Assembly: GCA_045636365.1 (NCBI GenBank)
Contig: JAZTXG010000012.1
Location: 6,559-70,558 of the forward strand
Direction: 5' to 3'
Length of the DNA stretch: 64,000 nucleotides
DNA from: Eubacteriales bacterium
GTDB lineage: Bacteria; Bacillota; Clostridia; Oscillospirales; QAKW01
Positions 1 to 17,244 of this stretch are shown piece by piece. Every line of letters begins with the position of its first letter. Within the stretch, counting starts at the first letter, position 1. The notes under the pieces are model-generated. The model was not told where the DNA came from and did no database searches. It saw only the letters and a list, made by a program, of their open reading frames with translations. Position numbers and translations under genes: made by a program.

Positions 1-3000
1 TCAAGATCTCGCTAAAGGCAAAATCGAATTCCGCAATACCTCCATCGAGCACCTTAAAGACCAGAACGATTGCATCGAACTCACTGTTTGCCGCAATGTT
101 GGCTGCATTGCTCCAAGCGGCGGTGAAGGTACCGTCTTCTTCATTTACTGTTTGATTTTTGTTCGCGCCGAAGGCGTCGGTCAGAGTGATGGACTCCAGC
201 TTCAACAAGTTCTTATTATAAGAACCGTTGATGGTCATACCGCTCCACGCATTCAGATAATCCTTGACCGAAACGGTCACAGTGACGGTATCGCCAATCT
301 TCGCATCGGTCTTATCAGCAGTAGCAATCAAATGGGGCTGCGCCTTGACATTGACAACAACCGTTTCGCTGCGCTCCTCATAATCCCAGACAGAAACCAT
401 CGGCTCTTCGTCGAAGGCGATTGCCTGATCGATCTCTGCATAGAAGGAAATTTCACCTTCGACCTTCGGGCTATAATAGAGATTCATTAAGGTGAGGGCC
501 GTCTCTGTTGAGATGTAGTCTGTGGACACCAAAATGAAATGAACGTATCCTTCGTCCTCATTCAGGAAAACCACTCCGGTCACATCGTCCCTATCGCTCT
601 GCCACTCATCGATATCCTCTTGGTCGATGGTAACCTCGCTCTTATCATAGTACAACTTCACCGAAAGCGCTTGCACGCGATTGTTGAGGTTGTTGACAGT
701 GAGTGTCAGGGCCTCTTTCCTATTCTTGATCGCAGCATCCGCAGTGCCGATCGACAGGAACATCGGATCCATATTTTCATATTGGTTTGCGATCGTGATG
801 ATTTGATCCTCTGCCTTGGGAGCGTAGGTTTGGGTATCGACTACGGTAAAGCCGCCGTTCGAATCGGGGGTCTTAACACTGTCTGTTACAAACCCTGCAC
901 CGAATTTGGCTTCGCCGTCTTGGTATGCTTTGAAGGGGATGGAAGCAAGCAAGATCTGCTCGCGGTCATCCTGAATGTTCTCAAGGGAGATCCAGGTAAA
1001 GACAATCTTGCCGTCTCCGGAGCGGAGCAATACCTGAGCGTCCTCTCCGCCCAGCGGATTGCAGACGATATCGCTCTCTTTGATGCGGATCCGCTCTTTA
1101 TCAAATTCCAAAACGACCGGAACGGTGCACCATTCGCTGCTATATTCATTCAGATAAAGATGGAGAACACTGTCGTCGCCTTCATCCATCGCGTTGCCCT
1201 TTTCGAGGACCATGGTCAGATGAGGGAATCTTATTTTTTTAGCGTCAACGATGAGCGCCTCGGCATCCGCCACATACTCATAGGGGTCCACATCGACATT
1301 CGCGTTGCCGTCGAAGGTCTTGACCTCGGTCAACGCTGCATCGAACTGCACATCGTCTTTAAATCCGTTTGTCTTGAAGGTGATGCTCAGAAGGGTGTTG
1401 TCCTTTTCGGCATCGATATTCGCGGCGCCTGCGGGGAAGACCAAAGAGATCTTACCGTCGACCGAAGTATCTACCGTCGGGGTAATTCCGCCAAAGGCCT
1501 TGGGAACAACCTCCTCGATGGTAAATACGCTTGCATCGTAGCTCAGCTCTGCGCTGAAGGAAGACCACAGATCGCTGTAGTCCTTCAGTTTCAGCTCCAC
1601 AGTGTACTCTTCACCCTCTTGAGCTTTGCTTTCGCCGACAATCTCCAAGAAGGTAGGAGCAAACAAAACAACCGGCGCGGACACAGGCGCTTCAGAGTAA
1701 GAACCTTCCGGCGCATACATTCCGCCATCGGTGGCAGGATCTTCCACAATGATACCGTTCTCGGGGAACGCGAAGGAAACGTTGGGATCGCCTTCATCAA
1801 GAACCTCAAAGACGAGTGTCATCGCTTCAAAGTTTCTACCCAAAGCAACAGCCTCATCGTTCATCCAGGCAGCCTGGATCGTACCAGGCTTGGTTTCGTC
1901 TGCCTCGAAGTACGCGAAGCCGTCGACCGAAGAAGTTGCTTCGATGAACTTCAGCTTCGTTTGATCGTAGTTTGCGAAGATGGACATTCCCAGCCAATTG
2001 TCTTGATATTCCGAGACATTGACGGTGTATGTAATTTGCTCGCCGACCTTGACGCGATCCTTAGAAACCGTTGCTCCCAAATGAGCTTTGGAGTTATCGA
2101 TTTCCAAAATAACCGTATCGCTCACTTCAGTCGCATCGTACCAACTCTCGGGAGCGTACTCTCCGTTGGCATCCAGAATTCCGTCGGGAACAAAGGAGAA
2201 GTTGAAACTTGCTTCGCCTTCCGCCAAAACGTCGAAGACGATTACCAATGCCTCAAAATTCGGATTTTCGGTCACGATCGCATCAGCATGTGCCCAGCAG
2301 ACCTTGATCTCGCCGTTTTCGTTTTTGATCTCCGGCTCGATGACCTCGTCCTGGAAATTTTTAGGAGTGATGGTCTTCACCGCGAGCTTGGCGGGATCAT
2401 AAGTTCCTTGAATGGTCATCGCGGACCAAAGATTTGCATAATCCTTAACGTTTACACGAACGGTAACTGTCTTGCCGACATAAGCGCTGTCTTCATCCAC
2501 TTTGACTTCCAAAGAGGTTGTGACATCGTTATAAAGCAACTCTACCGTATCGGATACCTTTGCATCGGCGGCATAGGTCTCGGTGGGGACCTTATCGCCG
2601 TTTTCGTCCAGAACTCCGTCGGGGATAAAGGAGAATTCAAATTTCTCTGTAGTGTTTTCGCCGGACAAGACCTTAAAGGTCAGTTCCATTGCGGTAAACG
2701 TATCGTCTGCCATAACAACGGTATCGTCGTTGAGCCAGTTCACCGCTATTTTACCGTTTTCATCTGCAATGACCGGCTCTCCGGCAATTCCGCCATCGCT
2801 GAAAGCGGCAAATTTGCTTTCTTCTTCAATCAGTTCAAATTTTTTGGCGTCATAAGTACCCATGATGGTCATGACCGCCCAATTATCTTTGTAGTCCACT
2901 ACGTCGACCTTGACGGTGATGGTCTCGCCGAGCTTGGCGGAGTCTTCCACTACATCGACGTTCAGCATCGTTCCCTGCACAGAAGGAGCGATCGCGATGG

Positions 3001-4399
3001 TCGCTGTTTTTTCTGCGCTGTCAAAATTGGAAACGAACTCGCCGTTGGCATCTGCAATACCGTCGGGAACAAAGGAGAAGGAAAGGTTGGCATCGCCTTC
3101 TTCCTTCACCTTGAAGGTCAGGGTCAGCGCGGAGAACTCCGGCTCCATATCGACTGCGTCGACATTAATCCAGGTCACACCCAGAACGCCGTCGATGCTA
3201 TCTTCAATCACCGCTTCGGTGCCGGAGATGGTATCTTTAAAGTCGATCGGCTCGACCTTTTGCAAGTCTAATTTATCTTTATCGTAGGATCCCTTGATGG
3301 TCATGGTCGACCAGGCATCTGCATAGTCCTTGACATTGACGATGACGGTAATTTCGCCGCCGACTGTCGCGGTAGAAGGAGCAACCACTTCCAGCCCCAC
3401 AAGGGTGGTGGACTCGCTGATGACGATCTCTTTTTCTACAGGCTCTTTGGAAAAACCGGTGGTAATTTGATCCGTTTCGTTTTCGCCGAAGATGCCGTCC
3501 TCTATGAAGGAGAAGGAGAGGTTGGCATCGCCCAGCGCTTTGACATTAAAGGTCAGAGTTAAGGCTTTGAATTCTGCATCTACGTCATCGACAATATTCT
3601 CATTGACCCAGACCGCCGAGATGGTTCCGTTTTCGACCTTAAAGATGGAGTCTTCCATGATTTCGCTGTTCTTAAACGTACCCTTGACGGACCGTTCTTC
3701 GTCCAGCTCCAATACATCCTTGTTGTAAGAACCGCGGATGGAGAGGGTCGACCAATTCTTGGCATAATCCTTGACCCAGACTTCGACGGTAATTTCATCG
3801 CCGACCACCGCAGTAGACGGAACAACCACGTCCAGATAAGTGGGAGTGGCCGTATCGATCGTGATGGTTTCGGTCGCCGGCTCTACACTGTATTTCGCTG
3901 TATCCAGCGGAGCAGAACCGCCTTCGGCCGCGACCAACATTTCGCTTTCCACAAAGTTGAAAGAGATCTCCGCCTCGCCCAACGCAGCATCCGCCTTGAC
4001 GGTCAGAGGAACAACCATTAAGGTCGCACCCTCTTCCGGAGCCACATCCGAAGTGGCAACCCAACCCGCAAGGATCTTGCCGCCCGAAATATCTGCGTCC
4101 TTGACCGTCAGCTCGGTATCGCCGACGTTAAAATCATATGTCTCCGGTTCGCCATCGGGCGCGAAGAGGTCGGTGCTGTATGTACCTGCAACCGCCATCC
4201 CGCTGAGAGCGACCGTATTATGAATCGTGACAACAGCGTTGACCGCATCCCCGGGCGCGACAGAAGTCAGCGGATTGCCTTCGCCATCCACCAATTCCAC
4301 CTTCAGTTCCATCGGGTCAGAAAGCGCCGAGGAAAAGACGGACGCCATAGAAAGCAGCATAACGATTGTCACAATTGTTGCTCCTATACGTTTGAACAT
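1..4399 (-). CDS. Secreted scaffoldin-like protein with a signal peptide and about ten tandem cohesin-like modules. The 3-prime end is cut by the window edge, so it is at least 1466 aa.
   Basis: Absent from the supplied ORF track because it runs off the window. The reverse complement of 4380-4415 reads GGAGGAtctctATGTTCAAACGT. Hand translation gives MFKRIGATIVTIVMLLSMASVFSSA (signal peptide). This is followed by repeated units of about 150 aa such as VVVPSTAVVGDEITVEVWVKDYAKNWSTLSIRGSYNKDVLEL...LTLTFNVKALGDANLSFSF. I checked the frame as open at 4399-2900, 2460-2390 and 190-119. The plus-strand ORFs here (for example 539..3271) look like antisense shadows. Confidence 0.8.
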   Translation of the reverse strand, partial: MFKRIGATIVTIVMLLSMASVFSSALSDPMELKVELVDGEGNPLTSVAPGDAVNAVVTIHNTVALSGMAVAGTYSTDLFAPDGEPETYDFNVGDTELTVKDADISGGKILAGWVATSDVAPEEGATLMVVPLTVKADAALGEAEISFNFVESEMLVAAEGGSAPLDTAKYSVEPATETITIDTATPTYLDVVVPSTAVVGDEITVEVWVKDYAKNWSTLSIRGSYNKDVLELDEERSVKGTFKNSEIMEDSIFKVENGTISAVWVNENIVDDVDAEFKALTLTFNVKALGDANLSFSFIEDGIFGENETDQITTGFSKEPVEKEIVISESTTLVGLEVVAPSTATVGGEITVIVNVKDYADAWSTMTIKGSYDKDKLDLQKVEPIDFKDTISGTEAVIEDSIDGVLGVTWINVDAVDMEPEFSALTLTFKVKEEGDANLSFSFVPDGIADANGEFVSNFDSAEKTATIAIAPSVQGTMLNVDVVEDSAKLGETITVKVDVVDYKDNWAVMTIMGTYDAKKFELIEEESKFAAFSDGGIAGEPVIADENGKIAVNWLNDDTVVMADDTFTAMELTFKVLSGENTTEKFEFSFIPDGVLDENGDKVPTETYAADAKVSDTVELLYNDVTTSLEVKVDEDSAYVGKTVTVRVNVKDYANLWSAMTIQGTYDPAKLAVKTITPKNFQDEVIEPEIKNENGEIKVCWAHADAIVTENPNFEALVIVFDVLAEGEASFNFSFVPDGILDANGEYAPESWYDATEVSDTVILEIDNSKAHLGATVSKDRVKVGEQITYTVNVSEYQDNWLGMSIFANYDQTKLKFIEATSSVDGFAYFEADETKPGTIQAAWMNDEAVALGRNFEAMTLVFEVLDEGDPNVSFAFPENGIIVEDPATDGGMYAPEGSYSEAPVSAPVVLFAPTFLEIVGESKAQEGEEYTVELKLKDYSDLWSSFSAELSYDASVFTIEEVVPKAFGGITPTVDTSVDGKISLVFPAGAANIDAEKDNTLLSITFKTNGFKDDVQFDAALTEVKTFDGNANVDVDPYEYVADAEALIVDAKKIRFPHLTMVLEKGNAMDEGDDSVLHLYLNEYSSEWCTVPVVLEFDKERIRIKESDIVCNPLGGEDAQVLLRSGDGKIVFTWISLENIQDDREQILLASIPFKAYQDGEAKFGAGFVTDSVKTPDSNGGFTVVDTQTYAPKAEDQIITIANQYENMDPMFLSIGTADAAIKNRKEALTLTVNNLNNRVQALSVKLYYDKSEVTIDQEDIDEWQSDRDDVTGVVFLNEDEGYVHFILVSTDYISTETALTLMNLYYSPKVEGEISFYAEIDQAIAFDEEPMVSVWDYEERSETVVVNVKAQPHLIATADKTDAKIGDTVTVTVSVKDYLNAWSGMTINGSYNKNLLKLESITLTDAFGANKNQTVNEEDGTFTAAWSNAANIAANSEFDAIVLVFKVLDGGIAEFDFAFSEIL

Positions 4400-4488: not shown

Positions 4489-4552
4489 ATTATAACAGAG
4501 CCGTTGTCAAATTGACATTACCTTATGTGTCTTTTTTAACACACTTTGCGTA
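4489..4552 (-). promoter_or_regulatory. Putative promoter of the scaffoldin-like gene: extended -10 (TGtTATAAT), a weak -35-position hexamer GTCAAT, and a conserved 36-nt upstream element (copy A).
   Basis: On the minus strand, TATAAT is at 4494-4489, preceded by TGt. A 16-nt spacer follows, then a hexamer at 4516-4511. The element at 4517-4552 (plus strand ATTACCTTATGTGTCTTTTTTAACACACTTTGCGTA) recurs with the same spacing at 11405-11440 and 52646-52681. Confidence 0.45.
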
Positions 4553-4620: not shown

Positions 4621-4766
4621 ATATCATCACCGCAAGGTGTATATCATCACGCGCCAGCGTGTATGAAATCAACCGAAGGTTGAATGTAACCACCGTAGGT
4701 GTATGTAATCACCGCAAGGTGTATGTAACCACCGTAGGTGTATGCCATTTGCCCTGCACGGGCAAA
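4621..4766. repeat. Tandem array of seven mini-hairpins of about 20 nt each (array A).
   Basis: The units are atcaCACCgcaaGGTGtat, atcaCACGCgccaGCGTGtat, aaaTCAACCgaaGGTTGAat, gtaacCACCgtaGGTGtat, gtaatCACCgcaaGGTGtat, gtaacCACCgtaGGTGtat and TTTGCCCtgcacGGGCAAA. The AT-rich flanks are conserved. The stems vary but remain complementary. Confidence 0.7.
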
Positions 4767-4799
4767 AAAAGTGCGTCAGGAGTTCCTGACGCACTTTTT
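4766..4799 (-). terminator. Rho-independent (bidirectional-looking) terminator downstream of the 4801-5640 gene.
   Basis: AAAAAGTGCGTCAGGagttCCTGACGCACTTTTT: a perfect 10-bp GC-rich stem flanked by an A-run and a T-run, immediately after the TAA stop at 4801. Confidence 0.75.
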
Positions 4800-4800
4800 A

Positions 4801-5640
4801 TTATTCTTCTTTGGATTTTTTGCGCAGCAGCAATGCGATGGCAAAGGCGCTGGCGCTGGCAACCATCAAGGAGATCCAGAGGATCAGGTCAAAATGGTCG
4901 CCGGTATCGGCGTTATCGGAATCGGGCTTGGTTTCGGGCTTTTGCTCCGGCTTGGGTTCCGGCTCCGGCTCTGTCTCGCCCTCTCCGCCGGGCTGGCCCG
5001 GTTGCTCGGGTTCCGGTTCGGGATCGGGGGTGGGCTCGGGATCGGGGGTGGGGTCGGGATCAGGCTCGGGTCCGGGGGCAGGCTCTCCCTGCTTTTTTGC
5101 CAAAGCAAAATAGCATTTGCTGCCGCCCGCCTTAAAGATCAGTTCTCCGTCTTTGATTTCGGAGGGAATCAAGGATTTTTGACTATCGGTAGTCAGGCGG
5201 TAGACCTCTAAATCCTCGGAGGAGACCTTGATGCGAATCTCGTCCCCTTCCTCTAATTCGATGCGCTGACCGGTGGTCTTATCGCGATAATAGACCTCAA
5301 AGGGCATGGCATCTTGGGTATCCAAGCCCTCGATGCACTCTTTAAACCAATCCAATGCTTCTTTATGATCGGGTTCAAAAAACCGCACCACCAGCTCCAG
5401 CTCCCCATTGGGCTCTGCGGGAGTGACAGCTAAAGCGCCCTCTTCTACCTCAATCTTATACAAATCGTCTTGCAGAGGGGCAGTATGCTGATTGGGTTCT
5501 TCCGCAGGAACATAGGTACCCTGCACTTGGATGGGAACCTCGCCCGGCAGTTGGGTAATGGTCGTCGAATTATCCGCTTGGGCGACGATGCCCAAAGCAA
5601 GCAGCATACATATTAAAATTGCGCCGATCCTTCGCTTCAT
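4801..5640 (-). CDS. Secreted protein with a Pro/Glu/Asp-rich linker and a C-terminal tail resembling a cell-wall sorting signal.
   Basis: ORF track 4801..5646. GGAGG abuts the first ATG, so the start is more likely the MKRR ATG at 5640. Features: signal peptide [22 protein letters not shown]; linker [28 protein letters not shown]...[11 protein letters not shown]; tail NADTGD, a hydrophobic stretch [21 protein letters not shown], then RKKSKEE. Confidence 0.8.
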
Positions 5641-5670
5641 GCTCATCCTCCAACTAAATTATTGTCGCTA

Positions 5671-6192
5671 TTACTTATTCTTTACCGCGGGCTTCAAGGA
5701 GACCGAGCCGCTGCTCAAATAGGTTTCCGGCTCATAGCCCATCACCTTAAAGGCCAGCGGTTCATCGTCCGCTACCGCGCGGGAAAATTCAATGGTCTGC
5801 AGATATTCGCCGGGCTTAATTAAGCCGGTCTCGGCGATGATTTCACCCTGCGCATCCAATACACGCAATTTCAGCCAGCTTTCGTTTTTGGGAACGTTAT
5901 AGAACCAGATATCCGCTTGGTTTTGCTCATTGATCAAAACACCGCCGCAAATGTATACGGTATAGGGCAACCCCTCTTGATGGATTTTCGACCATAACAG
6001 CCCTTTTAATTCATCGGTTTCTTCCAATTTTCCCGCCACCGCCGCTTCATCAAAGGCGGGGGGGACAAATTGGGGTTGCGCTCCGGGCTTAAAATGAATC
6101 AACGCCGCAACCATCGCGCAAACCGAGACGATACAAACCGCCCCGATGACGATCAAAGCAATTTTCAGTTCTTTTCTTGAGATTCTTCGCAC
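5671..6192 (-). CDS. Single-pass (N-terminal anchor) membrane protein with an extracytoplasmic domain; paralogue of 8243..8794.
   Basis: A 173-aa ORF with a GTG start and a weak RBS. The TM segment is IALIVIGAVCIVSVCAMVAALI. The C-terminal region ADIWFYNVPKNESWLKLRVLDAQGEIIAETGLIKPGEYLQTIEF aligns with GMVYFSFTNPYESNQDMVLQVFVKDKLIAQSKLLPPGNALSQLPL of the 8243..8794 product. Confidence 0.7.
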   Translation of the reverse strand: MRRISRKELKIALIVIGAVCIVSVCAMVAALIHFKPGAQPQFVPPAFDEAAVAGKLEETDELKGLLWSKIHQEGLPYTVYICGGVLINEQNQADIWFYNVPKNESWLKLRVLDAQGEIIAETGLIKPGEYLQTIEFSRAVADDEPLAFKVMGYEPETYLSSGSVSLKPAVKNK

Positions 6193-6285
6193 GTTTTTTG
6201 ATACCTGTTCTTTCTTTTTCCCTTGGTTTCTTTCGTCAAAAACGGCTGCAGGCGGAAATTCGCCGGCAGCCGCCTAAAAATTCAT

Positions 6286-7347
6286 TTATGAAATGGTGAC
6301 AGTAAAGATACCCAGAATGCCAGCCTCTTCTTCAGTAATTCTGCCGTCAACAGTAACCGTACCGGAAATAGCACCTTTGGTGCCATCGGGATTTTCCACA
6401 TTAGCCTCATTCACAGTAGCTTTATTAACGGTAACATCTTCTACAGCTGCCTTCAATGCGGTCTCAGCACCGCCTTCAGTGTCTTTATAGGAAAGGGAAG
6501 CCTTAACATCTTGGCTGGAATGATTCTCAATATTAACGGTAAGAGTAGCTTCTTTGACAGACCATGCGCCACTCTCAGAAACATCCCACTTATGTGTTTT
6601 GGTGTTCCACTCGTTAGTATCGGCATCTATAAAGGTAAATACCGCCAAGTCATTCCAAGATAAACCAACCTTATAAGCGTGGGAATCACGAGATTCATCA
6701 ATATACTCGCTCCCCACATCGATTTTTACTTCATTGCCGGGTGCTTTATTGGTAGTAATAGTCGCTTTATTGGAAGCAGGTTCTTCGGGATCTTGAGGTT
6801 GGTCGGGGTCTTCTTCCGGCTGGACTTCGATCGGGGCGGACTCCACCTCCGCGGAACTAAACGCACTGCCATCTGTATTTACAATGGGTTCCTCTGAACC
6901 AAGTTCCGCCTGACCGTCCGGGGTGAAACCGGCAGAGATGATTGCGTTTGTCGTTTCGGCAAGTGCGGTAAATTGCAGTTGAACCAAATAATCGGCGGCG
7001 GGAACACCATCGGAGCTGATCCAGTTGATCAGAATGGTACCCTCACCGTTTTTTACATCGGCAACGACCGTTTGAATATCCTCCAAGGCAGCATTGCCGA
7101 GAACGCCGGTCTCTTTATCAAAGGACAGATAGGCGGGGTCATAGGTGACTTTTACCGTCATCGCAGACCAGGTGTTCGCGGTATAATTCAATGCATTTAC
7201 GGTGGCTGTCACCGTTTCGCCTTCCTTTACCGCAGTTTGATCTACGGTGATCGCCAAAGAGGGAGCGGTTCCTTCCGCGCTCACAAAGGCGGCCAGCCCT
7301 GCCAACAGCAGGGCGCAGATCATCAAAATGCTGAATACTCGCTTCAT
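6286..7347 (-). CDS. Secreted protein: signal peptide, one cohesin-like module, an acidic Pro-rich linker and the shared C-terminal domain (CTD).
   Basis: ORF track 6286..7362 has a TTG start that overlaps the RBS. GGAGGatatatctATG places the start at 7347 (MKRVFSILMICALLLAGLAAFVSA). The cohesin-like stretch is ITVDQTAVKEGETVTATVNALNYTANTWSAMTVKVTYDPAYLSF. The CTD at 6289-6678 is highly similar to that of 7585..8151. Confidence 0.85.
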   Translation of the reverse strand: MKRVFSILMICALLLAGLAAFVSAEGTAPSLAITVDQTAVKEGETVTATVNALNYTANTWSAMTVKVTYDPAYLSFDKETGVLGNAALEDIQTVVADVKNGEGTILINWISSDGVPAADYLVQLQFTALAETTNAIISAGFTPDGQAELGSEEPIVNTDGSAFSSAEVESAPIEVQPEEDPDQPQDPEEPASNKATITTNKAPGNEVKIDVGSEYIDESRDSHAYKVGLSWNDLAVFTFIDADTNEWNTKTHKWDVSESGAWSVKEATLTVNIENHSSQDVKASLSYKDTEGGAETALKAAVEDVTVNKATVNEANVENPDGTKGAISGTVTVDGRITEEEAGILGIFTVTIS

Positions 7348-7584
7348 AGATATATCCTCCAAAAACTATATTTGGGGTTTATTGCTCAAATATCGCCGGT
7401 CTTTTTTTGCAGGCCGGAGATAGTTCAGCCATAAACCAAAACAAATGTTTTTCGGGGCGCGGCGGCTGCAAGGATGCTCGCCGCGCCGATTTTTCATGAA
7501 AAACGAATTCGCTTAATGTAAGCTTGGCAGCATGCCAAGGGCGGATTGCCGCCCTTGGCAAACTGCTTTAGATTAAAGGATTAA

Positions 7585-8151
7585 TTAGCCCTCAACAGGA
7601 GCAGTATACTCGGCAACGGTAACAGTGAAGGTACCCATAACGCCAGCTTCTGCTTCAGTGATTCTGCCGCCAACAGTAACGGTACCGGAGATAGAACCTT
7701 CAGTGCCTTTGGGAGCTTCTTCTTCAGTCTCATTCACAGCAGCTTTATCAACAATAACATCTTCTACAGCAGCCTTCAATGCGGTTTCAGCGCCACCTGC
7801 AGCATCTTCATAGCCAAGGCTAACTTTAACATCTACGCAAGAATGGTTCTCGATATTAACGGTAAGAGCAACTTCTTCAGCAGACCAAGAACCACCCTCA
7901 GTAACATCCCACTTGTGTGTTTCGACATTCCACTCGTTTTCGTTGGCATCAGTAAAGGTGATTGCAGCCAAGGCGTCCCAAGTCAGAACAACTTTGTAGT
8001 TAGGAACATCAGTTTGCTCATCGGAGTATGCACCGGTAACTTCGATCTTAGTATTGGCATCGGGAAGAGCGGTGATATCAGCAGCAAAAGCAACAGCGGA
8101 CATAGAGGCGATCATCGCGATCGCGAGAACGATAGATAATACCTTTTTCAT
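7585..8151 (-). CDS. Small secreted protein consisting essentially of a signal peptide plus the shared CTD.
   Basis: A 188-aa ORF. RBS AAGGAG lies 9 nt before the ATG. Signal peptide MKKVLSIVLAIAMIASMSAVAFA. The CTD is YKVVLTWDALAAITFTDANENEWNVETHKWDV...LTVNIENHS...GGAETALKAAVEDV...GTFTVTV. Confidence 0.85.
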   Translation of the reverse strand: MKKVLSIVLAIAMIASMSAVAFAADITALPDANTKIEVTGAYSDEQTDVPNYKVVLTWDALAAITFTDANENEWNVETHKWDVTEGGSWSAEEVALTVNIENHSCVDVKVSLGYEDAAGGAETALKAAVEDVIVDKAAVNETEEEAPKGTEGSISGTVTVGGRITEAEAGVMGTFTVTVAEYTAPVEG

Positions 8152-8242
8152 TTTTTAAGTCTCCTTAAAATAATTTTTTATATTTGACCGCTTAACGCTC
8201 CTTGCAGCGCAAAAGCGGCTAAATACCTTAAATAAGTTTGAT

Positions 8243-8794
8243 TTATTCCTGCACCTTAACGATGAGAGGAATATCGGTTTGAAGGATGGCTTTTTCGCCG
8301 GTTTCATAATAATAGGCGGCGGTATATTTGCCATCATAGCCGCCGGCGGAAAGCTTCACACCATCCCGCAAGGGAAGCTGGGAAAGGGCATTTCCCGGGG
8401 GCAATAATTTGGATTGGGCAATCAACTTATCCTTAACAAACACCTGCAGGACCATATCCTGATTGGATTCATAGGGGTTGGTGAAGGAAAAATAGACCAT
8501 CCCATCGGAAAGATCCACACGGACCTCTTTTTGATATTGAATACTCACCGAGCCGCCGCCCTGCTCCTGCTCCAATTTCTCGTTTTCCTTATCGGAATCG
8601 GGGGTGGGGGTAGCGTTCGGTTCGATCTCCTGCGGGGCATAGTCCGGCGCAAGAGTGGGGGTGGTATCGCGGAAGAAGATGGACCAGATGGTGACACTGC
8701 AGCTGGTAATCAACAGCAACAGCAGCAAGATCAGCGCAGCAAGCATCCAGCGTTTCTTTTTGCGATTATTTTCTTGATTGACGTGCTTACTCAA
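8243..8794 (-). CDS. Single-pass (N-terminal anchor) membrane protein; paralogue of 5671..6192.
   Basis: A 183-aa ORF. RBS AGGAGG lies 6 nt before the TTG start. A basic N-terminus is followed by the TM segment WMLAALILLLLLLITS. The extracytoplasmic domain aligns with the 5671..6192 product. The gene lies 21 nt after the upstream stop, so it is probably co-transcribed. Confidence 0.75.
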   Translation of the reverse strand: MSKHVNQENNRKKKRWMLAALILLLLLLITSCSVTIWSIFFRDTTPTLAPDYAPQEIEPNATPTPDSDKENEKLEQEQGGGSVSIQYQKEVRVDLSDGMVYFSFTNPYESNQDMVLQVFVKDKLIAQSKLLPPGNALSQLPLRDGVKLSAGGYDGKYTAAYYYETGEKAILQTDIPLIVKVQE

Positions 8795-8815
8795 CGGGGA
8801 CCTCCTGCGTTATTC

Positions 8816-11296
8816 TTAAACTGCTTTATCAATAGTCACTGTAATGGTGCCGAGCACCGTCTTCGTATCGGTCGAAAGTTCTGCGCCGGCGGGCAGGTCG
8901 CCCAACTCAAATTGAACCGTTGCCGAATTATATGCATCGCCTTCGGCCTTATCGACTGTCAACGACGATACTGCAGTTCCATCCTGCTCGAATGTATGGG
9001 TCAGCCCGACAAGGTCGGTCTTCTCCGGGTTTACAGCAAATTCAAACGTCGCTGTAATATCAACCTTACCTTGGTTGGTGACGGTGATCCAATTTTCGGC
9101 TTCGCTGTCTGCATTTAAGCAGGTCCAACCGCGGCCATCCCAAATATGGTTTTGGGGATCCCAGGTGCCGAAAGAATAGGTAAATGCCATTGCGCCCCAT
9201 TCGATTTTCACCGAAATTTCCGACGCGGCCGTTTCGATCTTGACTTCGACTTCGGCGGGAGTATCTGTATAGTTATCGCCATCCAGCTCTGCGCCGTTTT
9301 GATAGTTTCCGCCTTCAAGAAACGCTACAGAAACGAACCGGCGAAGTTGCTCTTCGGTCAGGTCTTCCTGCCTTACTTTCAGCGTAAATACCATAATGTC
9401 TTGATTCGGCAAGTACATTGGCAAAGGATCGCCGTTGAACCAGCAGGCAAGCAACGTTCCTTTGGCGTGTTCGGTGATGAACTCGGAATGAGCGCCTTCA
9501 CCATCGTCGTTAAACGCGTTCTTATCTTCGACAGAAACAAACTCGAATACGTCGGAATCAAACAACGCCTTGAGGGTCATTACTTCCCAAGCGCTTGTAA
9601 AATCCTTGATCGAGACAGCAAAACGAACTTCTTTGCCCTGCTCAATAGCGCCGATTTCTTCCCCTTCGGGAACATCCACGCCGTCGATCTGATCGATCCG
9701 GATGGAGAGTTCGGGCTTGCCACGAACGGTTATGGGCTTCACGGCAGACGTTTCGATATAACCGGCAACATCATCGCCGGAAAGGTTACCCCCCGCCAGG
9801 AAAGAGGCGGTGATGGGGAATTCGGATCCGTCTACCGTATAATCACTTTTAATTGTTATGGGGATCTCAAGGATCGTTCCGCTTGAGGCGCCCAGCTTGA
9901 GATCATCGCCTTCTTCAGAGAAAATGGTGATACCAAGTTTGTTTCCGCTAATCACCGGCACAACGGCGACATCACTGTCGCCTAATGCAACGATATTATC
10001 CGTATCTACCTCAAAAACGTTTTTATTGAGGTTGACAAGGATACTCATCATCGACCACGGATCAACATAATCAGTGATGTTCACTTGAAGAGTGAATTTC
10101 TCACCGCGAGAAAAGGCGGGTTTATCTTCCTCAACCACTACAGATAAGTAGGGGAACACCTTCTGCGTTACCTTGACTTCAGCTGTACCCTCTTCGTGCT
10201 CTTCAACATAATCGTCGGCGGAGGTCAGCAGTTCTTCTTCGCCTGTCGCGGCATCGTATTTAAAGTTGCCTTCTTGCTGGAAAGAGGTCCCGATTTCGAG
10301 CGCGCTTCCCGCGCCTTGGGCTTCCAAGGTCAGCTCCAGAATATCTGCATCGGATGCACCGTCTTTCAGAATCATATTGCCCAAAGAGGGGCTGAAGAAG
10401 CAGATTGAAAGCGGTTTTGCAGCATCTTCGGTCTCTGCCACCAGCATGGAGACGGGATCCGAAGTTTCGGAGTCAACAAGATTTCCTAAGTCTTCCGAAC
10501 TTATATACTTGAATTTATTGCCATTGTATTGAAGGTCCAGAGTCATCATCATCCAGCCTTCGTAGAAATTGTTCAGGCAAACGATTGCTTTGACTTTTTC
10601 CCCTTGCTCAATTTCGGTAACCGGATTTCCGCTCTCATCCACCAACCGCATGGTCAGATGCGGCTGATACACACGGACCTCTCTTTCAAAATCGGAGGTG
10701 GCGGCATAAGCTTCGGTAGCGATGAACTCCGGTTCGTCACCAACATACCCCGCGACACTATCGTCTACAAAGGTAAAAGAGAGTTTCGCGTTATCGGTCT
10801 CCGCAATTGCTTTGAATTTCAAATCCATCAATGCGGCAGTTCCCTCTACGGCAGGGAGGTTGGTGCCTTGATTGCTCATCATAAAAACCATCAAGGAACC
10901 GCTTGCTTTATTAGACTCATCAATCGAGAGGGTGAACTCCTCGCCGATCTTCGTTTCAAAACCCTTATATTCCAGCTCCGCCGGATCATAGGTCAATTCG
11001 GCAACAAAGATCGCCCAATCGCCCCTATAATTTTCCAGCGAGACAGAAATATCAAACTCTTCGTCCAGCGAAAGATGCTCTTTCTCTGTACTCATCACCA
11101 CGGAAGTCGGCTCAGAGCCGCCTTCGGTGTTTAACAATGCGGGCTGCTCGGAAGCGTAATTATTCAGTTGAACTGTTGCATCCAACGCATCGCTCTCAAG
11201 TACGCTTTCGTCGGCAGCAGAGACGACAAAGACCGAGCATACCATGGAGCAGAGCATTGCCAGCGCAACAGCGATTGACCATACACGCTTATTCAC
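8816..11296 (-). CDS. Secreted protein with four cohesin-like modules and a divergent copy of the shared CTD.
   Basis: ORF track 8816..11365. GGAGGtatttcGTG makes GTG at 11296 the likely start (VNKRVWSIAVALAMLCSMVCSVFVVSA signal peptide). The module signatures are ISVSLENYRGDWAIFVAELTYDPAELEY, AIVCLNNFYEGWMMMTLDLQYNGNKFKY, LQVNITDYVDPWSMMSILVNLNKNVFEV and FAVSIKDFTSAWEVMTLKALFDSDVFEF. The CTD at 8819-9217 reads ISVKIEWGAMAFTYSFGTWDPQNHIWDGRGW...ITVTNQG...GTITVTI. Confidence 0.85.
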   Translation of the reverse strand: MNKRVWSIAVALAMLCSMVCSVFVVSAADESVLESDALDATVQLNNYASEQPALLNTEGGSEPTSVVMSTEKEHLSLDEEFDISVSLENYRGDWAIFVAELTYDPAELEYKGFETKIGEEFTLSIDESNKASGSLMVFMMSNQGTNLPAVEGTAALMDLKFKAIAETDNAKLSFTFVDDSVAGYVGDEPEFIATEAYAATSDFEREVRVYQPHLTMRLVDESGNPVTEIEQGEKVKAIVCLNNFYEGWMMMTLDLQYNGNKFKYISSEDLGNLVDSETSDPVSMLVAETEDAAKPLSICFFSPSLGNMILKDGASDADILELTLEAQGAGSALEIGTSFQQEGNFKYDAATGEEELLTSADDYVEEHEEGTAEVKVTQKVFPYLSVVVEEDKPAFSRGEKFTLQVNITDYVDPWSMMSILVNLNKNVFEVDTDNIVALGDSDVAVVPVISGNKLGITIFSEEGDDLKLGASSGTILEIPITIKSDYTVDGSEFPITASFLAGGNLSGDDVAGYIETSAVKPITVRGKPELSIRIDQIDGVDVPEGEEIGAIEQGKEVRFAVSIKDFTSAWEVMTLKALFDSDVFEFVSVEDKNAFNDDGEGAHSEFITEHAKGTLLACWFNGDPLPMYLPNQDIMVFTLKVRQEDLTEEQLRRFVSVAFLEGGNYQNGAELDGDNYTDTPAEVEVKIETAASEISVKIEWGAMAFTYSFGTWDPQNHIWDGRGWTCLNADSEAENWITVTNQGKVDITATFEFAVNPEKTDLVGLTHTFEQDGTAVSSLTVDKAEGDAYNSATVQFELGDLPAGAELSTDTKTVLGTITVTIDKAV

Positions 11297-11376
11297 GAAA
11301 TACCTCCACACAAAACTTTCAAAATGAATGAACCCCCGCGCCATATTGCAAAGGGGATACTTCAACCATTGACTTT

Positions 11377-11440
11377 ATTATAGCAGAGCGAAAAACAAAT
11401 TTACATTGCTTTATGTTGCTTTTTTTAAACGATTTGCGTC
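11377..11440 (-). promoter_or_regulatory. Putative promoter of the 8816-11296 / 8243-8794 unit, with the conserved upstream element (copy B).
   Basis: On the minus strand, TGcTATAAT has its -10 at 11382-11377. A 16-nt spacer follows, then the hexamer GTAAAT at 11404-11399. The element at 11405-11440 is ATTGCTTTATGTTGCTTTTTTTAAACGATTTGCGTC. Confidence 0.45.
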
Positions 11441-11511
11441 TTTTTTTAAAAAATTAGTGCATTTTATACATTTTTTTGCATCATTCTTTATTTCAGTCGT
11501 CGAAATAGACT

Positions 11512-11553
11512 ATGAAAAAAGAAGGCTTGCTTTACCCCATAGCAAAGCAAGCC
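11512..11553 (-). terminator. Rho-independent terminator downstream of murA.
   Basis: Stem GGCTTGCTTT / AAAGCAAGCC with a 10-nt loop. On the minus strand it is followed by ttcTTTTTTc. Confidence 0.65.
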
Positions 11554-11584
11554 CTATATATTAAATATGAAAGGTTTTGAAAAA

Positions 11585-12841
11585 TCAATCGGGGACGATA
11601 CGGATATCGGCGCCCAGCGCGGAGAATTTTTCCACAATCCGCTCATAACCGCGGCGGATATGGTCAATATCCTCAATGGCGGTGGTTCCCTGCGCCGCCA
11701 GACCCGCGATGACCATCGCCGCTCCCGCCCGCAGGTCGCAAGCCCGCACCGGCGCGCCCAGCAGCTTGCCGCCGCCCTTGACGGTGGCGATCTTGCCCGC
11801 GACCGCAATATCGGCGCCCATACGGATCAGCTCTTCGGTATATTTGAAGCGGCTTTCCCAGATGCTTTCATCGATTTTGCTGGTGCCTTCTGCCCGCAGC
11901 ATAACGATTGCCATCTGCGGCTGCATATCGGTGGGGAAGCCGGGGTAGGGCATCGTCTTAATATTGGTTTTTTTCAGCGGTGCGGTGGCATCCACTAAAA
12001 TGCTATCGTCGTATTCCTCGATATGGACACCCATCTCCTCCAATTTGGCGGTGATACATTCCATATGCTTGGGGATGACATTTTTGACCAGCACCTTTCC
12101 GCCGGTCGCCGCCGCGGCAGCCATATAGGTGCCCGCTTCGATCTGGTCGGGGATGACCGCATAAGAGCCGCCCCGCAGCTCGGCCACACCCTGCACCTTG
12201 ATGACATCGGTACCCGCGCCGCGGATATTGGCGCCCATCGAGTTCAAAAAGTTTGCCACATCGACGATATGGGGCTCTTTGGCGACGTTTTCAATCACCG
12301 TCTGCCCTTCGGCCTTGACCGCCGCCAGCATCGCATTGATGGTGGCGCCCACCGAGACCATATCCAGATAGATGCCCGAGCCTTCCAGCTTTTCGGCATG
12401 GCAATGGACATTTCCGTGCAGAATATCCACCTGCGCACCCAGCTGCTCAAAGGCTTTGATATGCTGATCCATCGGGCGCGCGCCCAGATGCCAGCCGCCG
12501 GGCAACGCCACTGTGGCATTGCCGAACCGCCCCAAAAGCGCGCCCAAAAAATAATAGGAAGCGCGGAACTTGCGGGCATATTCATAGGGGACCTCGGTGC
12601 AGCGCACCGCCGAGCAATCCACTTCCAAGCAGTTTCCGCCCGACCGACGCACCTTCGCGCCCATGGCAATCAAAATATTGCAGATATTTTCCACATCGCT
12701 GATCTGGGGGACGTTTTCAATTCTGCAAACGCCGTTGACCAGCATCGCGGCAGGCAAAATCGCCACAATGGCGTTCTTTGCGCCCGCAATATCTACCTCA
12801 CCTTCCAGCCGGCAAGGTCCGTTGATGATGATTCGATCCAT
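11585..12841 (-). CDS. murA: UDP-N-acetylglucosamine 1-carboxyvinyltransferase (MurA family); the catalytic-loop Cys position is Trp.
   Basis: A 418-aa ORF that aligns end to end with E. coli MurA from memory: GAKNA (Lys22), LPGG-x-x-x-GARP loop, PTDMQ, DLRAGAAMV and HIRRGYERI. The loop reads LPGGWHLGARPMD, against LPGGCTIGARPVD in E. coli. Confidence 0.85.
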   Translation of the reverse strand: MDRIIINGPCRLEGEVDIAGAKNAIVAILPAAMLVNGVCRIENVPQISDVENICNILIAMGAKVRRSGGNCLEVDCSAVRCTEVPYEYARKFRASYYFLGALLGRFGNATVALPGGWHLGARPMDQHIKAFEQLGAQVDILHGNVHCHAEKLEGSGIYLDMVSVGATINAMLAAVKAEGQTVIENVAKEPHIVDVANFLNSMGANIRGAGTDVIKVQGVAELRGGSYAVIPDQIEAGTYMAAAAATGGKVLVKNVIPKHMECITAKLEEMGVHIEEYDDSILVDATAPLKKTNIKTMPYPGFPTDMQPQMAIVMLRAEGTSKIDESIWESRFKYTEELIRMGADIAVAGKIATVKGGGKLLGAPVRACDLRAGAAMVIAGLAAQGTTAIEDIDHIRRGYERIVEKFSALGADIRIVPD

Positions 12842-12904
12842 TTCTTCTCCTATCTTAAATGATACTCTATATATAATGTATCACACGCAAACGAAAAAAT
12901 AAAG

Positions 12905-13936
12905 TTATTCTTTCACAAATTTTTCGGGGCGGTATTTTTTGATTGCCTTTTTATTGATCTTTACCTTAAATTGCTGCTCCCATTCCGAAAGCAGCGCCTC
13001 GATCTCTTCGGCGCGGATCTCTTCCAGGGTCTGCTGCCGCAGGGTGGCGGTAAACAGCTCGTCGGTGGTGCCGTCGTACCGCTTTAGGATCATCAGCGCG
13101 CCCTCGGTCTCCACCAAGGTCACCTCGCCAAGCTCCAACTTAAAGGCGGCTTCCTCCACCTTTTTATTAAAAGTACCGTCGTTGGTAATCACCATTCCGT
13201 CCGCCTCGTCGGCTTTCATATCCGAATGGGTTTCGATCAGGTCGGGGAAATAGTCCTTTTCGCTCTCCCGCTGCGCCGACTCCAGCACCGCCTGCGCGCG
13301 GTCGCGGGCGTCCTGCAATTCTTTGCCCACAAAAAAGTTGCCGTCCTCATCCTGCTTGGTGATATAGATGAATTTGACATAAATATGGTTCAGCGCATAA
13401 TAATTTTTCAAATCCTGCAAGGAGACGGGTTTTTCCCCTTTTTCGCCGAAATAATGGCTTAAAACCTTGGTTTTCTTGGCGGCATCGTAATATTCGGTCA
13501 AAAATTCATCGTAGGTATAATATCCGTCGGCAAGGGCGTTATTGAACTCGGTCATACTGCCATAGGATTCCGCAATCTGCGCCACCGCTTCGGTAATCGC
13601 CTGCTCCTCTTCGGCGGAAAAGGAAAGACCCAACGCTTCAAATTGCTCGGCGTAAAGCTTCTTTTCAATCAGTTCCTGCTGCAGGGTTTCGGTCAGCATT
13701 GCGGATAAAGTGCCGCCTTGCTCATCCTCGGTGGTCCAGAGTTCCTTGGTGTCCTCTTCGCCCGATTCCTGCAGATAATTCTGCCGCAGGGTGGCAACGT
13801 TCCGCTTATAATCGTTCTCGGAAACGATGGAATTGCCCACCTTGATGGCATAGTCCGGCCCGCTGCAGGCGGCAAGTGTTGTTATCAATAAAGCAACCAT
13901 CATTCCAACAACGATGGTGCGACAAAAGTTTCTCAT
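12905..13936 (-). CDS. PrsA/SurA-like foldase lipoprotein (degenerate parvulin-type PPIase region).
   Basis: ORF track 12905..14053. AAGGAGaatctcaATG places the start at 13936. Signal and lipobox: MRNFCRTIVVGMMVALLITTLAAC. The product is a long helical, acidic chaperone-like region with a parvulin-like C-terminal half. The family call is from overall architecture only. Confidence 0.55.
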   Translation of the reverse strand: MRNFCRTIVVGMMVALLITTLAACSGPDYAIKVGNSIVSENDYKRNVATLRQNYLQESGEEDTKELWTTEDEQGGTLSAMLTETLQQELIEKKLYAEQFEALGLSFSAEEEQAITEAVAQIAESYGSMTEFNNALADGYYTYDEFLTEYYDAAKKTKVLSHYFGEKGEKPVSLQDLKNYYALNHIYVKFIYITKQDEDGNFFVGKELQDARDRAQAVLESAQRESEKDYFPDLIETHSDMKADEADGMVITNDGTFNKKVEEAAFKLELGEVTLVETEGALMILKRYDGTTDELFTATLRQQTLEEIRAEEIEALLSEWEQQFKVKINKKAIKKYRPEKFVKE

Positions 13937-14027
13937 TGAGATTCTCCTTAATTTATATGTGTTTTCAGTATAACATAGGAAGATATTTTTGTAAATAGAG
14001 TTGTTAATCCGATAAAATCGTGTTAAA

Positions 14028-15398: not shown

Positions 15399-16269
15399 TT
15401 TGAAGCATTGCAATCTTTGCCCGCGGCAATGCGGTATCGACCGCGCCCAAGCGCGGGGCGTCTGCCGCGCAGACGGGGAAATGAAAATTGCCCGCGCCGC
15501 CCTGCATTTTTGGGAAGAGCCCTGCCTTTCGGGGGAGCGGGGGTCGGGAACGGTCTTTTTCAGCGGCTGTAATCTGGGTTGCATCTATTGCCAAAACCAA
15601 GCCATCAGCCGCGCCGATTGCGGCAAGGCGGTTTCCCCCGCAGAATTGGCAGAAATTTTTGCCGATTTGGAGCGGCAGGGAGCGCATAATATCAACTTGG
15701 TCACCCCCACCCACCATTGGCTGCAAATCAAAGAGGCGGTCGGGCTTTACCAAGGGAACCTGCCCATCGTTTATAATACCAGCGGGTACGAGCGCCCCGA
15801 AGCCATCGATGCGCTGGCGGATACGGTGGATATTTATCTGACCGACCTGAAATATGCGGAACGCGATTCCGCCGCCCGCTTCAGCCACGCCGCCGATTAT
15901 CCGCAGGTGGCAAGAGCCGCGCTGGAGCGGATGGTTCAAACCGTCGGAGTGCCTCAATTTGATAAAAGCGGACTATTGCAAAAAGGCGTTATTGCGCGGC
16001 TTTTGGTATTGCCCTCCATCGAGCACGAAGCAATGATGAACCTGAAATTTCTCAAGGAGCAATTTGGGAATCAAATCATCATCAGCATTATGAACCAATA
16101 TACCCCGATGGGCGAGGATTTGCCCGAAGAATTGCGGCATCCGCTGCCGCCCGCCGCCTACCAAACGGTGGTGGACTATGCCCGCGCTTTAGATTTTAAA
16201 TATGCCTATATTCAAGAAGGGGAAACGGCGAAAGAAAGCTTTATACCGCCCTTTAGAAAGGAATTGTAA
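15391..16269 (+). CDS. Radical SAM protein, PflX-like (homologue of pyruvate formate-lyase activating enzymes).
   Basis: A 292-aa ORF with CNLCPRQC and the canonical GCNLGCIYCQN CxxxCxxC motif. It overlaps rlmD by 8 nt. Confidence 0.7.
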   Translation: MFDLKHCNLCPRQCGIDRAQARGVCRADGEMKIARAALHFWEEPCLSGERGSGTVFFSGCNLGCIYCQNQAISRADCGKAVSPAELAEIFADLERQGAHNINLVTPTHHWLQIKEAVGLYQGNLPIVYNTSGYERPEAIDALADTVDIYLTDLKYAERDSAARFSHAADYPQVARAALERMVQTVGVPQFDKSGLLQKGVIARLLVLPSIEHEAMMNLKFLKEQFGNQIIISIMNQYTPMGEDLPEELRHPLPPAAYQTVVDYARALDFKYAYIQEGETAKESFIPPFRKEL

Positions 16270-17052: not shown

Positions 17053-17116
17053 CAAACCACTGCCAATGTGTTAAAATTGCTTTTGTTCTGAAACCTTGCA
17101 ATAAGGAAACGAACAT

Positions 17117-17205
17117 GCCGGTGTGGCGGAACTGGCAGACGCCCGGGACTTAAAATCCCGTGGGTAGCGATACCCGTACCGGTTCGATCCCGGTCACCGG
17201 CACCA
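17117..17205 (+). tRNA. tRNA-Leu (anticodon UAA), class II with a long variable arm and an encoded CCA.
   Basis: Acceptor GCCGGTG/CACCGGC. Anticodon stem CGGGA/TCCCG with loop CTTAAAA (anticodon TAA). Variable arm TGGGTAGCGATACCCGTA. T-arm CCGGTTCGATCCCGG. The 3-prime end is ACCA. Confidence 0.9.
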
Positions 17206-17238
17206 AAAAAAGAGAACCCATTCGGGTTCTCTTTTTTT
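17206..17238 (+). terminator. Rho-independent terminator after tRNA-Leu.
   Basis: AGAGAACCCattcGGGTTCTCT followed by TTTTTT. Confidence 0.8.
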
Positions 17239-17244
17239 GTGTTT

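Follow-up and report, generated by a model that had tools for sequence, protein, structure and literature searches.

A conserved gene cassette of gut Clostridia probably encoding a multi-protein cell-surface structure

Organization of the six-gene cluster

The window analyzed here is a stretch of 64,000 nucleotides (nt) from the genome of a Eubacteriales bacterium (Bacillota; Clostridia; Oscillospirales; assembly GCA_045636365.1, contig JAZTXG010000012.1, positions 6,559 to 70,558). Its minus strand harbors, from position 11296 down to position 4801, six co-oriented open reading frames (ORFs), encoding, in this order, a protein with four cohesins and a C-terminal domain (CTD), referred to as G1, the membrane protein A1, a CTD-only protein (G3), a protein with one cohesin and the CTD (G4), a second membrane protein (A2), and a Pro/Glu-rich protein with a sortase-type tail (G6, the base protein). 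An earlier note, made by reading the same sequence, had listed these six genes at these coordinates and a scaffoldin-like gene downstream of them. All six ORFs are indeed present, and the gene that follows is a cohesin-rich partial ORF, with an open frame of 1,470 amino acids (aa) scoring 137.2 bits against the Pfam Cohesin model. The features are listed in Table 1.

A terminator hairpin follows murA on the upstream side of the cluster, and the palindromic hairpin on the downstream side is a bidirectional terminator. The AT-rich leader preceding G1 may act as the promoter, as its TATAAT box suggests, and it is proposed that the six genes form a single cassette, whose transcription is bounded by a terminator hairpin at either end. 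The start of G1 given in the earlier note, at 11296, is correct: it is a GTG codon, preceded at 7 nt by a GGAGG ribosome-binding site; the start of G4 is more likely the ATG at 7347, which also lies behind a GGAGG, and G3 has a strong AAGGAG site. The flanking genes (murA, a PrsA/SurA-like gene, and an RNA methyltransferase gene) are housekeeping genes, with no sporulation genes among them.

The six products do not match any enzymatic family of Pfam or NCBIfam at E ≤ 1, which agrees with their earlier description as non-enzymatic, and a signal peptide or an N-terminal anchor, likewise claimed for every product, is visible in the sequences. Only the cohesin modules map to a characterized family. 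The Pfam Cohesin model (PF00963, gathering cut-off 24.1 bits) matches G1 with 54.3 bits over four stretches and G4 with 31.1 bits over a single one (nt 6865-7254); both proteins end in the CTD, and neither of them matches an SLH, dockerin, or anchor family at E ≤ 1 (Pfam). The core families of the cluster, i.e., the CTD, A1, A2, and the domain of the base protein, have no match in Pfam, in NCBIfam, or among the PDB sequences: a PDB sequence search with the CTD, A1, and A2 profiles retrieved only transmembrane-helix noise or designed proteins, and the orthologues from distant lineages matched nothing in Pfam and NCBIfam besides sorting-signal models.

Table 1. Coordinates of the cluster and of the neighboring features in the window (S-type and T-type refer to the two forms of the CTD described in the next section).
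Feature	Position	Strand	Remarks
Terminator hairpin after murA	11522..11555	-	15-bp stem, then T run; upstream cluster boundary
AT-rich cluster leader	11297..11420	-	TATAAT box near 11380; read from the sequence
G1, proposed tip protein, 826 aa	8816..11296	-	Signal peptide, four cohesins, T-type CTD at the extreme C-terminus
T-type CTD of G1	8831..9241	-	Cargo leads directly into the 'SVKIEWGAMAFTY' strand
A1, 183 aa	8243..8794	-	Basic N-terminus, one transmembrane helix, one Ig-like domain; proposed membrane-bound chaperone or platform of assembly
G3, S-type CTD-only protein, 188 aa, proposed shaft subunit	7585..8151	-	Signal peptide, N-terminal strand, beta-sandwich core
Two GC-rich hairpins directly 3' of G3	7452..7559	-	Fold z-score -8.2
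G4, proposed cohesin-bearing shaft subunit	6286..7347	-	Signal peptide, cohesin, acidic/Pro linker, complete S-type module
A2, 173 aa	5671..6192	-	N-terminal transmembrane helix and Ig-like domain
G6, base protein, 281 aa	4801..5646	-	Signal peptide, strand, family-specific domain, stalk, sorting signal, transmembrane helix, basic tail
Palindromic 15-bp hairpin between A run and T run	4766..4799	.	Downstream cluster boundary
Neighboring scaffoldin, partial, >1,465 aa after the first ATG	1..4399	-	Many cohesins; continues past the window start
Secreted dockerin protein, 1,764 aa	47245..52539	-	C-terminal type I dockerin at nt 47290-47436

The protein families and their distribution

The three copies of the CTD pointed out in the earlier note are homologous, since a single hidden Markov model (HMM) matches all of them, with E values ranging from 6e-17 (G1) to 1e-33 (3e-27 for G4); the CTD of G3 is 62% identical to that of G4 and 26% identical to that of G1. 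Two types of CTD can be recognized. In the small CTD proteins, as well as in G4 with its orthologues, the HMM match starts near position 10 (position 5 in G4) and takes in an N-terminal strand (S-type) with the consensus D-V-x-[AG]-[TK]-Y; of 116 sequences, 103 have the V, 107 have the A or G, and 106 have Y or F at the last position; given that a strict regular expression caught only 37% of the S-type proteins, a position-specific scoring matrix (PSSM) was used instead. The strand of G3 is KIEVTGAY (nt 8026-8049), and the S-type module of G4, strand included, spans nt 6292-6756. In the large proteins occupying the first position of the cassette, the match begins at position 23-30 or thereabouts and the N-terminal strand is absent (T-type), the cargo passing directly into the strand 'ISVDITWGAMEFTY'; G1 is one of these, and its CTD is without the D-V-x-[AG]-x-Y strand.

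The cargo of the T-type proteins is adhesin-like and variable, and it includes cohesin, PKD, Calx-beta, Listeria-Bacteroides repeats, and CBM26. In many S-type subunits (P0298, P0367, P0379, and P0408), the cargo is C-terminal and has repeated 'LDLNGHTL...' segments; it is probably a beta-helix adhesin-like domain, ending with 'GTYNFDPTDYVD...WTVT', and its location implies that a cargo can be placed at either end of the CTD module.

The CTD-only family, to which G3 belongs, was represented by 43 relatives of 162-188 aa, all unnamed and none with a Pfam domain. Their signal peptide (MKKVLSIVLAIAMIATMSAVAFA) is near-invariant, with mature parts that are only 30-45% identical, which suggests that the leader itself is under selection, for example via a dedicated recognition step, via translation or targeting signals, or via recombination at the conserved 5' end. 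The two hairpins following G3 might represent an attenuator or an mRNA stabilizer raising the dosage of the shaft subunit. Across the loci, the 100 nt downstream of the gene fold to -35 kcal/mol or less in 35% of the S-type genes, compared with 7% of the T-type or A1 genes; strong hairpins after S-type genes are what would be expected for an over-expressed major subunit.

Both membrane-protein families (at least 519 homologues of A1 and at least 367 of A2) have the same layout: the N-terminus is basic, a single transmembrane helix is present, the juxtamembrane segment is highly conserved (FFRDTTPxLAPDYAPQ in A1), and there is one immunoglobulin-like (Ig-like) domain. The two had been regarded as paralogues in the earlier note; BLASTP detects no similarity between them (E = 16), and only their family profiles align (hhalign probability 97.6%, E = 3.8e-12), so that the paralogy stands as a remote homology and not as a similarity detectable between the single sequences. 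The same type of profile comparison revealed no relationship between the CTD and A1, and none between the base domain and either the CTD or A1 beyond the leader.

The base proteins are composed of a signal peptide, an S-like strand, a domain specific to the family, a linker that varies in length, a sorting signal, a hydrophobic helix, and a basic tail. In G6, the strand is PIQVQGTYV (nt 5509-5535), a Pro/Glu/Asp-rich stalk of about 57 aa (nt 4918-5088) follows the domain, and the tail comprises NADTGD (nt 4897-4914), the hydrophobic helix, and then RKKSKEE. The tail of the base orthologues is a conserved [SPA]PxTGD sortase signal, which takes the form N[AP]DTGD in the clade of the window, and one of them passes the NCBIfam srtB_target model (19.9 bits, cut-off 18.15). 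No sorting signal is present in the shaft and tip proteins; the base protein is the only one that bears it. When the PSSM of the S-type strand was applied to the N-termini of the base proteins, the median best score was 8.5 bits and 52% of them scored above 8 bits, a value exceeded by 1-2% of the controls (shuffled sequences, other ORFs, and the stretches preceding T-type CTDs); moreover, the alignment of the base and S-type profiles by hhalign covers only residues 1-48, i.e., leader and strand (probability 95%, E = 2e-8).

Structure models were obtained with AlphaFold2 (AF2). The model of G3, built from 31 sequences, has a predicted local distance difference test (pLDDT) score of 70.6 and a beta-sandwich core, and leaves the conserved N-terminal strand unplaced in the monomer (pLDDT 44-61); its Foldseek matches in the PDB are weak (E ≥ 0.01) and include FimG, Caf1, the PapG pilin domain, FimA rods, and TasA. 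The model of A1 (pLDDT 82.9) has a helix at residues 3-40, corresponding to the N-terminal anchor, and most of its top 50 Foldseek matches are chaperones of chaperone-usher systems (E from 3e-4 to 4e-3), namely SafB (3e-4), CsuC, Caf1M, FaeE, SfaE, FimC, DraB, PapD, and YadV, with other Ig-like domains intermixed. Each of these scores is modest when taken alone; it is the pair, a chaperone-like A1 model together with a pilin-like CTD model, that is notable.

In order to assess whether the genes are syntenic in relatives, the contigs carrying relatives of G3 were inspected, and synteny turned out to be strong. In two of them (L001 and L004), the whole neighborhood is arranged as in the window, the order being a PrsA/SurA-like gene, murA, an 838-865 aa cohesin protein (the orthologue of G1, in the same position), a 181-183 aa A1, a CTD-only protein, a 334-346 aa cohesin protein, a 173 aa A2, a 261-268 aa base protein, and a 1,908-1,909 aa protein with cohesins and SLH. 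Two ORFs absent from the window are located between the base and scaffoldin genes: in L001, one of 649 aa (13630-15579) with no Pfam match, and in L004, one of 175 aa on the opposite strand (13354-13881). The relatives are labeled 'Clostridia bacterium' and come from goat, deer, and human gut.

The identity between the window and these two contigs is highest for A1 (89-93%) and A2 (82-87%), followed by the base protein (73-75%), G1 (38-65%), and G4 (41-59%), with G3 (37-42%) the most divergent member despite its near-invariant signal peptide. Such a gradient, calculated from the sequences, fits a buried machinery and an exposed shaft.

More distant carriers of A1 display the same arrangement with other cargo; as an example, a protein of 1,203 aa and a CBM26 protein of 941 aa both end in the CTD. 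A scan with the A1 alignment over one genome per GTDB species disclosed 75 loci, whose hosts are Oscillospiraceae and Lachnospiraceae (Mediterraneibacter, Blautia, Acetatifactor, Marvinbryantia), Ruthenibacterium lactatiformans, Bianquea renquensis NSJ-32, Congzhengia, Emergencia, and more. HMMs of the CTD, A1, and A2 were built and run on all the ORFs of all the loci. In the arrangement that recurs, a large protein with the CTD at its end comes first, followed by A1, by small CTD proteins numbering one to four, and by A2, and the gene after A2 nearly always belongs to the base family, which includes G6. Among the 47 loci with enough flanking sequence, a small CTD gene follows A1 in 42, A2 lies downstream in 39, a large CTD protein precedes A1 in 32, and a recognizable base gene comes after A2 in 26; the five parts are all present and in order in 20, the base gene having been detected by a strict pattern that undercounts it. 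In three Oscillospiraceae loci (L006, L007, and L030; about 6375-17624), the cassette includes a protein with CBM26, a starch-binding module, and the CTD at its end, and no base gene follows A2; a 491-aa leucine-rich-repeat-like membrane protein and a sortase gene are found 0.5-2 kb downstream.

The distribution of the CTD is wider still. Searched against 1.84 billion cluster representatives, its profile retrieved 4,529 of them at E ≤ 1e-3 (2,698 at E ≤ 1e-10), most of which are 165-190 aa long, and many of which have the N-terminal module and then a cargo domain. The unit is far broader than a cellulosome accessory, being a modular cassette spread across gut Clostridia in which the cohesin is one of several cargoes. 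A mobile-element origin was also considered and rejected: A1 is absent from the 72,556 plasmids searched, and it occurs once in the phage collection, in the unannotated sequence MT837052.1 (7,861 bp, 'Bacteriophage sp.', human faeces; positions 2611-3063, 44% identity), which is probably a bacterial fragment mislabeled as phage.

A putative wall-anchored fiber and the alternative explanations

The maintenance of the gene order in dozens of species indicates that the cluster is more than a chance assembly, and there is little doubt that it represents a dedicated, conserved multi-protein surface structure. Its description in the earlier note as an undescribed, non-enzymatic cell-surface complex is supported, the two findings named there as contrary to it not having been made (the products map to no characterized family apart from the cohesins, and relatives share the synteny), and the full-text literature searches retrieved no description of this cassette.

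As for the nature of this structure, the simplest reading of the CTD and base classes is that the T-type is an acceptor only, the S-type is both donor and acceptor, and the base is a donor only and is wall-anchored. Together with the shared N-terminal strand and the chaperone-like A1 and A2, these tip, shaft, and base classes make up a pilus-like anatomy, which points to a pilus-like fiber over a wall-binding set of the WxL type. What the sequences show is the gene content and its conserved order, the classes of domains, where the strand motif occurs, and the conservation gradient; on this basis, it is proposed, with an even chance of being right, that the cassette builds a wall-anchored surface fiber of the usher-less, donor-strand type, with a sortase-anchored base and a cohesin tip.

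In this model, all the products would be exported by Sec. G1 would be the distal tip, since its T-type CTD could accept a strand, having none to donate, and each of the S-type subunits G3 and G4 would donate its N-terminal strand to the CTD of the preceding subunit, giving rise to a head-to-tail chain. The proximal end would be capped by G6, which has the strand and no CTD; a housekeeping sortase encoded elsewhere might link G6 to the peptidoglycan via its xxxTGD motif, with the Pro/Glu-rich stalk spanning the wall. A1 and A2, held in the membrane by their N-terminal helix, might stabilize the subunits before incorporation through their single Ig-like domain, as the chaperones of chaperone-usher systems do. 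Clostridia are mostly monoderm, and an usher would not be needed since there is no outer membrane. Lastly, the five cohesins on the fiber would recruit dockerin-bearing proteins away from the cell, complementing the adjacent SLH-type scaffoldin. The protein P0308 (421 aa) deserves mention in this context: in its single polypeptide, a linker of about 25 aa connects a cargo and T-type CTD with the N-terminal-type strand AAIPITGNL and an S-type CTD, an arrangement that looks like a natural fusion of a tip with the first shaft subunit. Since the order of its parts is the one expected under the fiber model, P0308 was counted in favor of it.

The closest analogue of the cassette, as far as published descriptions allow a comparison, appears to be the Pam pilus of the Candidate Phyla Radiation (CPR), which has been resolved by cryogenic electron microscopy (cryo-EM) and comprises pilins of the tip and of the shaft, two PapD-like chaperones anchored in the membrane, and a terminator that has a strand at its N-terminus and an anchor at its C-terminus; its authors reported Pam pilins to be exclusive to CPR (bioRxiv 10.64898/2026.03.03.709456). 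Both systems are encoded by one operon, with neither an outer membrane nor an usher, and both have two membrane-anchored chaperones or chaperone-like proteins and a terminator or base in which a further strand at the N-terminus is combined with an anchor at the C-terminus. The Ig-like subunits, joined in Pam by a donated strand as seen by cryo-EM, would be joined in the same way in the cassette, where the tip, as in Pam, would be a strand acceptor only. The operon logic of the Pam type is found here, as the order T-type gene, A1, S-type gene(s), A2, and base is conserved and the base has both strand and anchor. However, the Pam chaperones are two-domain and PapD-like with a C-terminal helix, whereas each of A1 and A2 has its helix at the N-terminus and only one Ig-like domain; Pam pilins consist of two domains with a linker strand; and the Pam terminator is only membrane-anchored, unlike the cassette base with its sortase signal.

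A similar division of labor can be recognized in the chaperone-usher systems of Gram-negative bacteria (Fim, Pap, Caf1, Csu), where the tip adhesin is a cargo joined to a pilin-like domain devoid of the N-terminal extension, the shaft subunits have a conserved N-terminal strand, and a terminator subunit is present; chaperones and pilins of these systems are the best matches of the A1 model and weak matches of the CTD model, respectively. The cassette differs from them in having neither usher nor outer membrane (no usher gene was found in the cluster or in the related loci), in the base being wall-anchored by sortase, as its signal predicts, and in its membrane-tethered, single-domain chaperone-like proteins; moreover, the PapD_N, PapD_C, and Fimbrial families of Pfam are unmatched in the cluster products. 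With the SpaA-type sortase pili, the cassette has in common tip, shaft, and base proteins and a base predicted to be linked to the wall by sortase, but only the base has a sorting signal, no pilin-specific sortase is encoded in the cluster, and no match to Gram_pos_anchor or to pilin families was detected in its products. The TasA/TapA/SipW system of Bacillus is a donor-strand fiber of a Firmicute, composed of a secreted beta-sandwich subunit and an accessory anchoring or nucleating protein, and TasA is among the weak matches of the CTD model; nevertheless, the cassette does not include a SipW-type signal peptidase, its accessory proteins are different, and the Peptidase_M73/TasA family gave no match in Pfam, NCBIfam, or PDB sequences.

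Several points weigh against the fiber. PapD-like and Pam chaperones are two-domain proteins, and A1 and A2, with their one domain and N-terminal anchor, do not match PapD_N (Pfam, E ≤ 1). The strand exchange is read from sequences and from monomer models, and that of G3 is of moderate quality; the Foldseek E values are weak for both A1 and the CTD, and Ig-like folds readily match one another. The N-terminal strand lies only about 7-10 residues ahead of the first core strand, so that it might form an intramolecular hairpin. Some S-type proteins bear long C-terminal extensions, and a free C-terminus is thus not required. As regards the anchoring, the NADTGD motif of the window is without the usual proline, and a sortase gene is absent from the window and from most loci, being found nearby only in loci of the L006 type.

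The alternative that best survives, although less likely than the fiber, is a non-polymeric anchoring complex like WxL/Csc, in which the CTD would dock one-to-one and non-covalently to the base, to A1 or A2, or to a wall polymer, so that each cargo protein would be displayed on its own, with competitor, cap, or filler as the role of the CTD-only proteins. The earlier note had remarked that the cluster resembles the logic of the WxL/Csc clusters while matching none of their families, and so it does. Like the Csc clusters of Lactobacillales, the cassette combines non-enzymatic secreted proteins sharing a domain, small anchored partners, and one small sortase substrate; a base orthologue has a sub-threshold match to the CscD-like family EF0750/EF2685 (NF053819; E = 2.3e-6, 28.1 bits against a cut-off of 47), restricted to linker and anchor; and polymerization is something that we infer. 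On the other hand, WxL (PF13731) is unmatched in G1, G3, and G4 at E ≤ 1, DUF916, the CscA-type family, is unmatched in G6, A1, and A2, and the sole WxL match among the base proteins (0.014) falls in the Pro-rich linker of one orthologue; the CTD, A1, A2, and the base domain are thus all without a Pfam counterpart in that system. The hosts of the cassette are Clostridia, and the polarity of tip, shaft, and base is not a known feature of Csc clusters. A one-to-one docking leaves this polarity unexplained, i.e., why the strand is absent in the tip proteins and common to small subunits and base; nor does it explain why cargo-less CTD-only genes are universal and occur in one to four tandem copies, or why they evolve fastest and are followed by hairpins that may boost expression.

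It appears far less probable that the cassette is a cellulosome accessory, in which the CTD would be a new dockerin-like module, by which G1, G3, and G4 would be attached to the cohesins that the neighboring SLH scaffoldin carries. A cohesin-rich scaffoldin does adjoin the cluster in the window, in L001, and in L004, and the cohesins of G1 and G4 are homologous to those of the scaffoldin (25-36% identity); G1 and G4 also resemble cohesin-bearing scaffoldins in being non-catalytic, in lying beside a large SLH-type scaffoldin, and in belonging to a genome with type I dockerins. However, they attach via the CTD of a five-part cassette that is cohesin-free in other species: the cassette is found in dozens of species with non-cohesin cargo and no scaffoldin nearby, and a new dockerin is unlikely where cohesins and scaffoldins are so commonly missing. 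Besides, the approximately 4,500 CTD cluster representatives are mostly cargo-less, the genome already has ordinary type I dockerins for its cohesins, and A1, A2, and the base protein would be left with no role. The types of scaffoldin anchoring surveyed in the literature (SLH, LPxTG, LysM, dockerin, C-terminal transmembrane helix, and Cu-amine-oxidase-like) include none resembling the CTD (PMC11557425). The impression, recorded in the earlier note, of a likeness to cellulosome anchoring without a match is therefore borne out, the cohesins being present and the attachment module being of no known anchoring type.

Just as improbable is a two-dimensional structure of CTD-only subunits on the cell surface (a coat or sheath), or an appendage of the spore made of them, with the large CTD proteins as embedded decorations: the near-invariant signal peptide with a diverging mature part, known also from the S-layer proteins of Lactobacillus, and a subunit gene that looks highly expressed from its sequence would suit it, but the flanking genes are not sporulation genes, G3 has no SLH, CWB2, or other lattice-anchoring domain (Pfam), and the asymmetry of tip, shaft, and base with a single sortase-anchored base suits a linear structure better. 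The F-ENA (DUF4183) spore appendages were discarded as a different family, made of trimeric rings tethered to the exosporium.

Gram-positive surface fibers are currently explained by sortase-polymerized pili, type IV pili, TasA-like fibers, and spore appendages. The broader claim that the cassette represents a donor-strand pilus family, chaperone-assisted and usher-less, which would be the first such family in Gram-positive Bacillota and widespread in gut Oscillospiraceae and Lachnospiraceae, with single-domain tethered chaperones, a sortase-anchored terminator, and an interchangeable cargo on tip and shaft (here cohesins, making a 'scaffoldin on a pilus'), is tentative and judged somewhat more apt to fail than to hold. 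If the fiber model were confirmed, this would be a new class of pilus for Gram-positive bacteria, and strand donation with tethered chaperone-like proteins and a sortase-anchored base would constitute a new Gram-positive assembly route, used by Clostridia that are abundant in gut and rumen (about 75 GTDB species in one scan and thousands of metagenome protein clusters). It would also give a function to four sizeable families with no Pfam or NCBIfam model, and, for fiber-degrading bacteria, would represent a fifth way to hold cohesins (elsewhere CBM26 or adhesin modules) away from the cell. What is uncharacterized here is the families and their host range; strand-donation fibers and surface display clusters are kinds of system that are already known. 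The interchangeable cargo would make the cassette a natural display scaffold for engineering, and the existence of cultured carriers (B. renquensis NSJ-32 and R. lactatiformans) renders the question directly testable.

The adjacent scaffoldin and the rest of the window

The scaffoldin gene has a promoter-like site of its own at 4489-4518, and the product of its L004 orthologue, 1,909 aa long, has three SLH repeats besides the cohesins. The dockerin that the earlier note had placed near 47.3 kb is real (Dockerin_1, 26.2 bits, cut-off 22.9), and the protein carrying it is, on sequence grounds, a candidate ligand of the cohesins. A large repeat ('...GYTFHVT.NIDF...F.GTIEGHGYAFKNI...VWS.A...') is present three times in this protein, and a Cys/His-rich segment precedes the dockerin, the only part with a Pfam match; repeats of a comparable pattern are found in the L006 T-type protein. 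The adjoining ORF of 723 aa (52588-54759, plus strand) matches no Pfam family at E ≤ 0.01.

Two further ORFs with no Pfam match (25664-27178 and 27200-28318) lie where the GC content falls to 0.415, at 26-28 kb. The plus strand between about 16000 and 40000 is occupied by a long polysaccharide-biosynthesis cluster (Polysacc_synt_2, glycosyltransferases, and a flippase; e.g., 29580-30392 and 30438-32222), which includes LicD and a fused nucleotidyltransferase/choline kinase, suggesting a phosphocholine decoration of a wall polymer.

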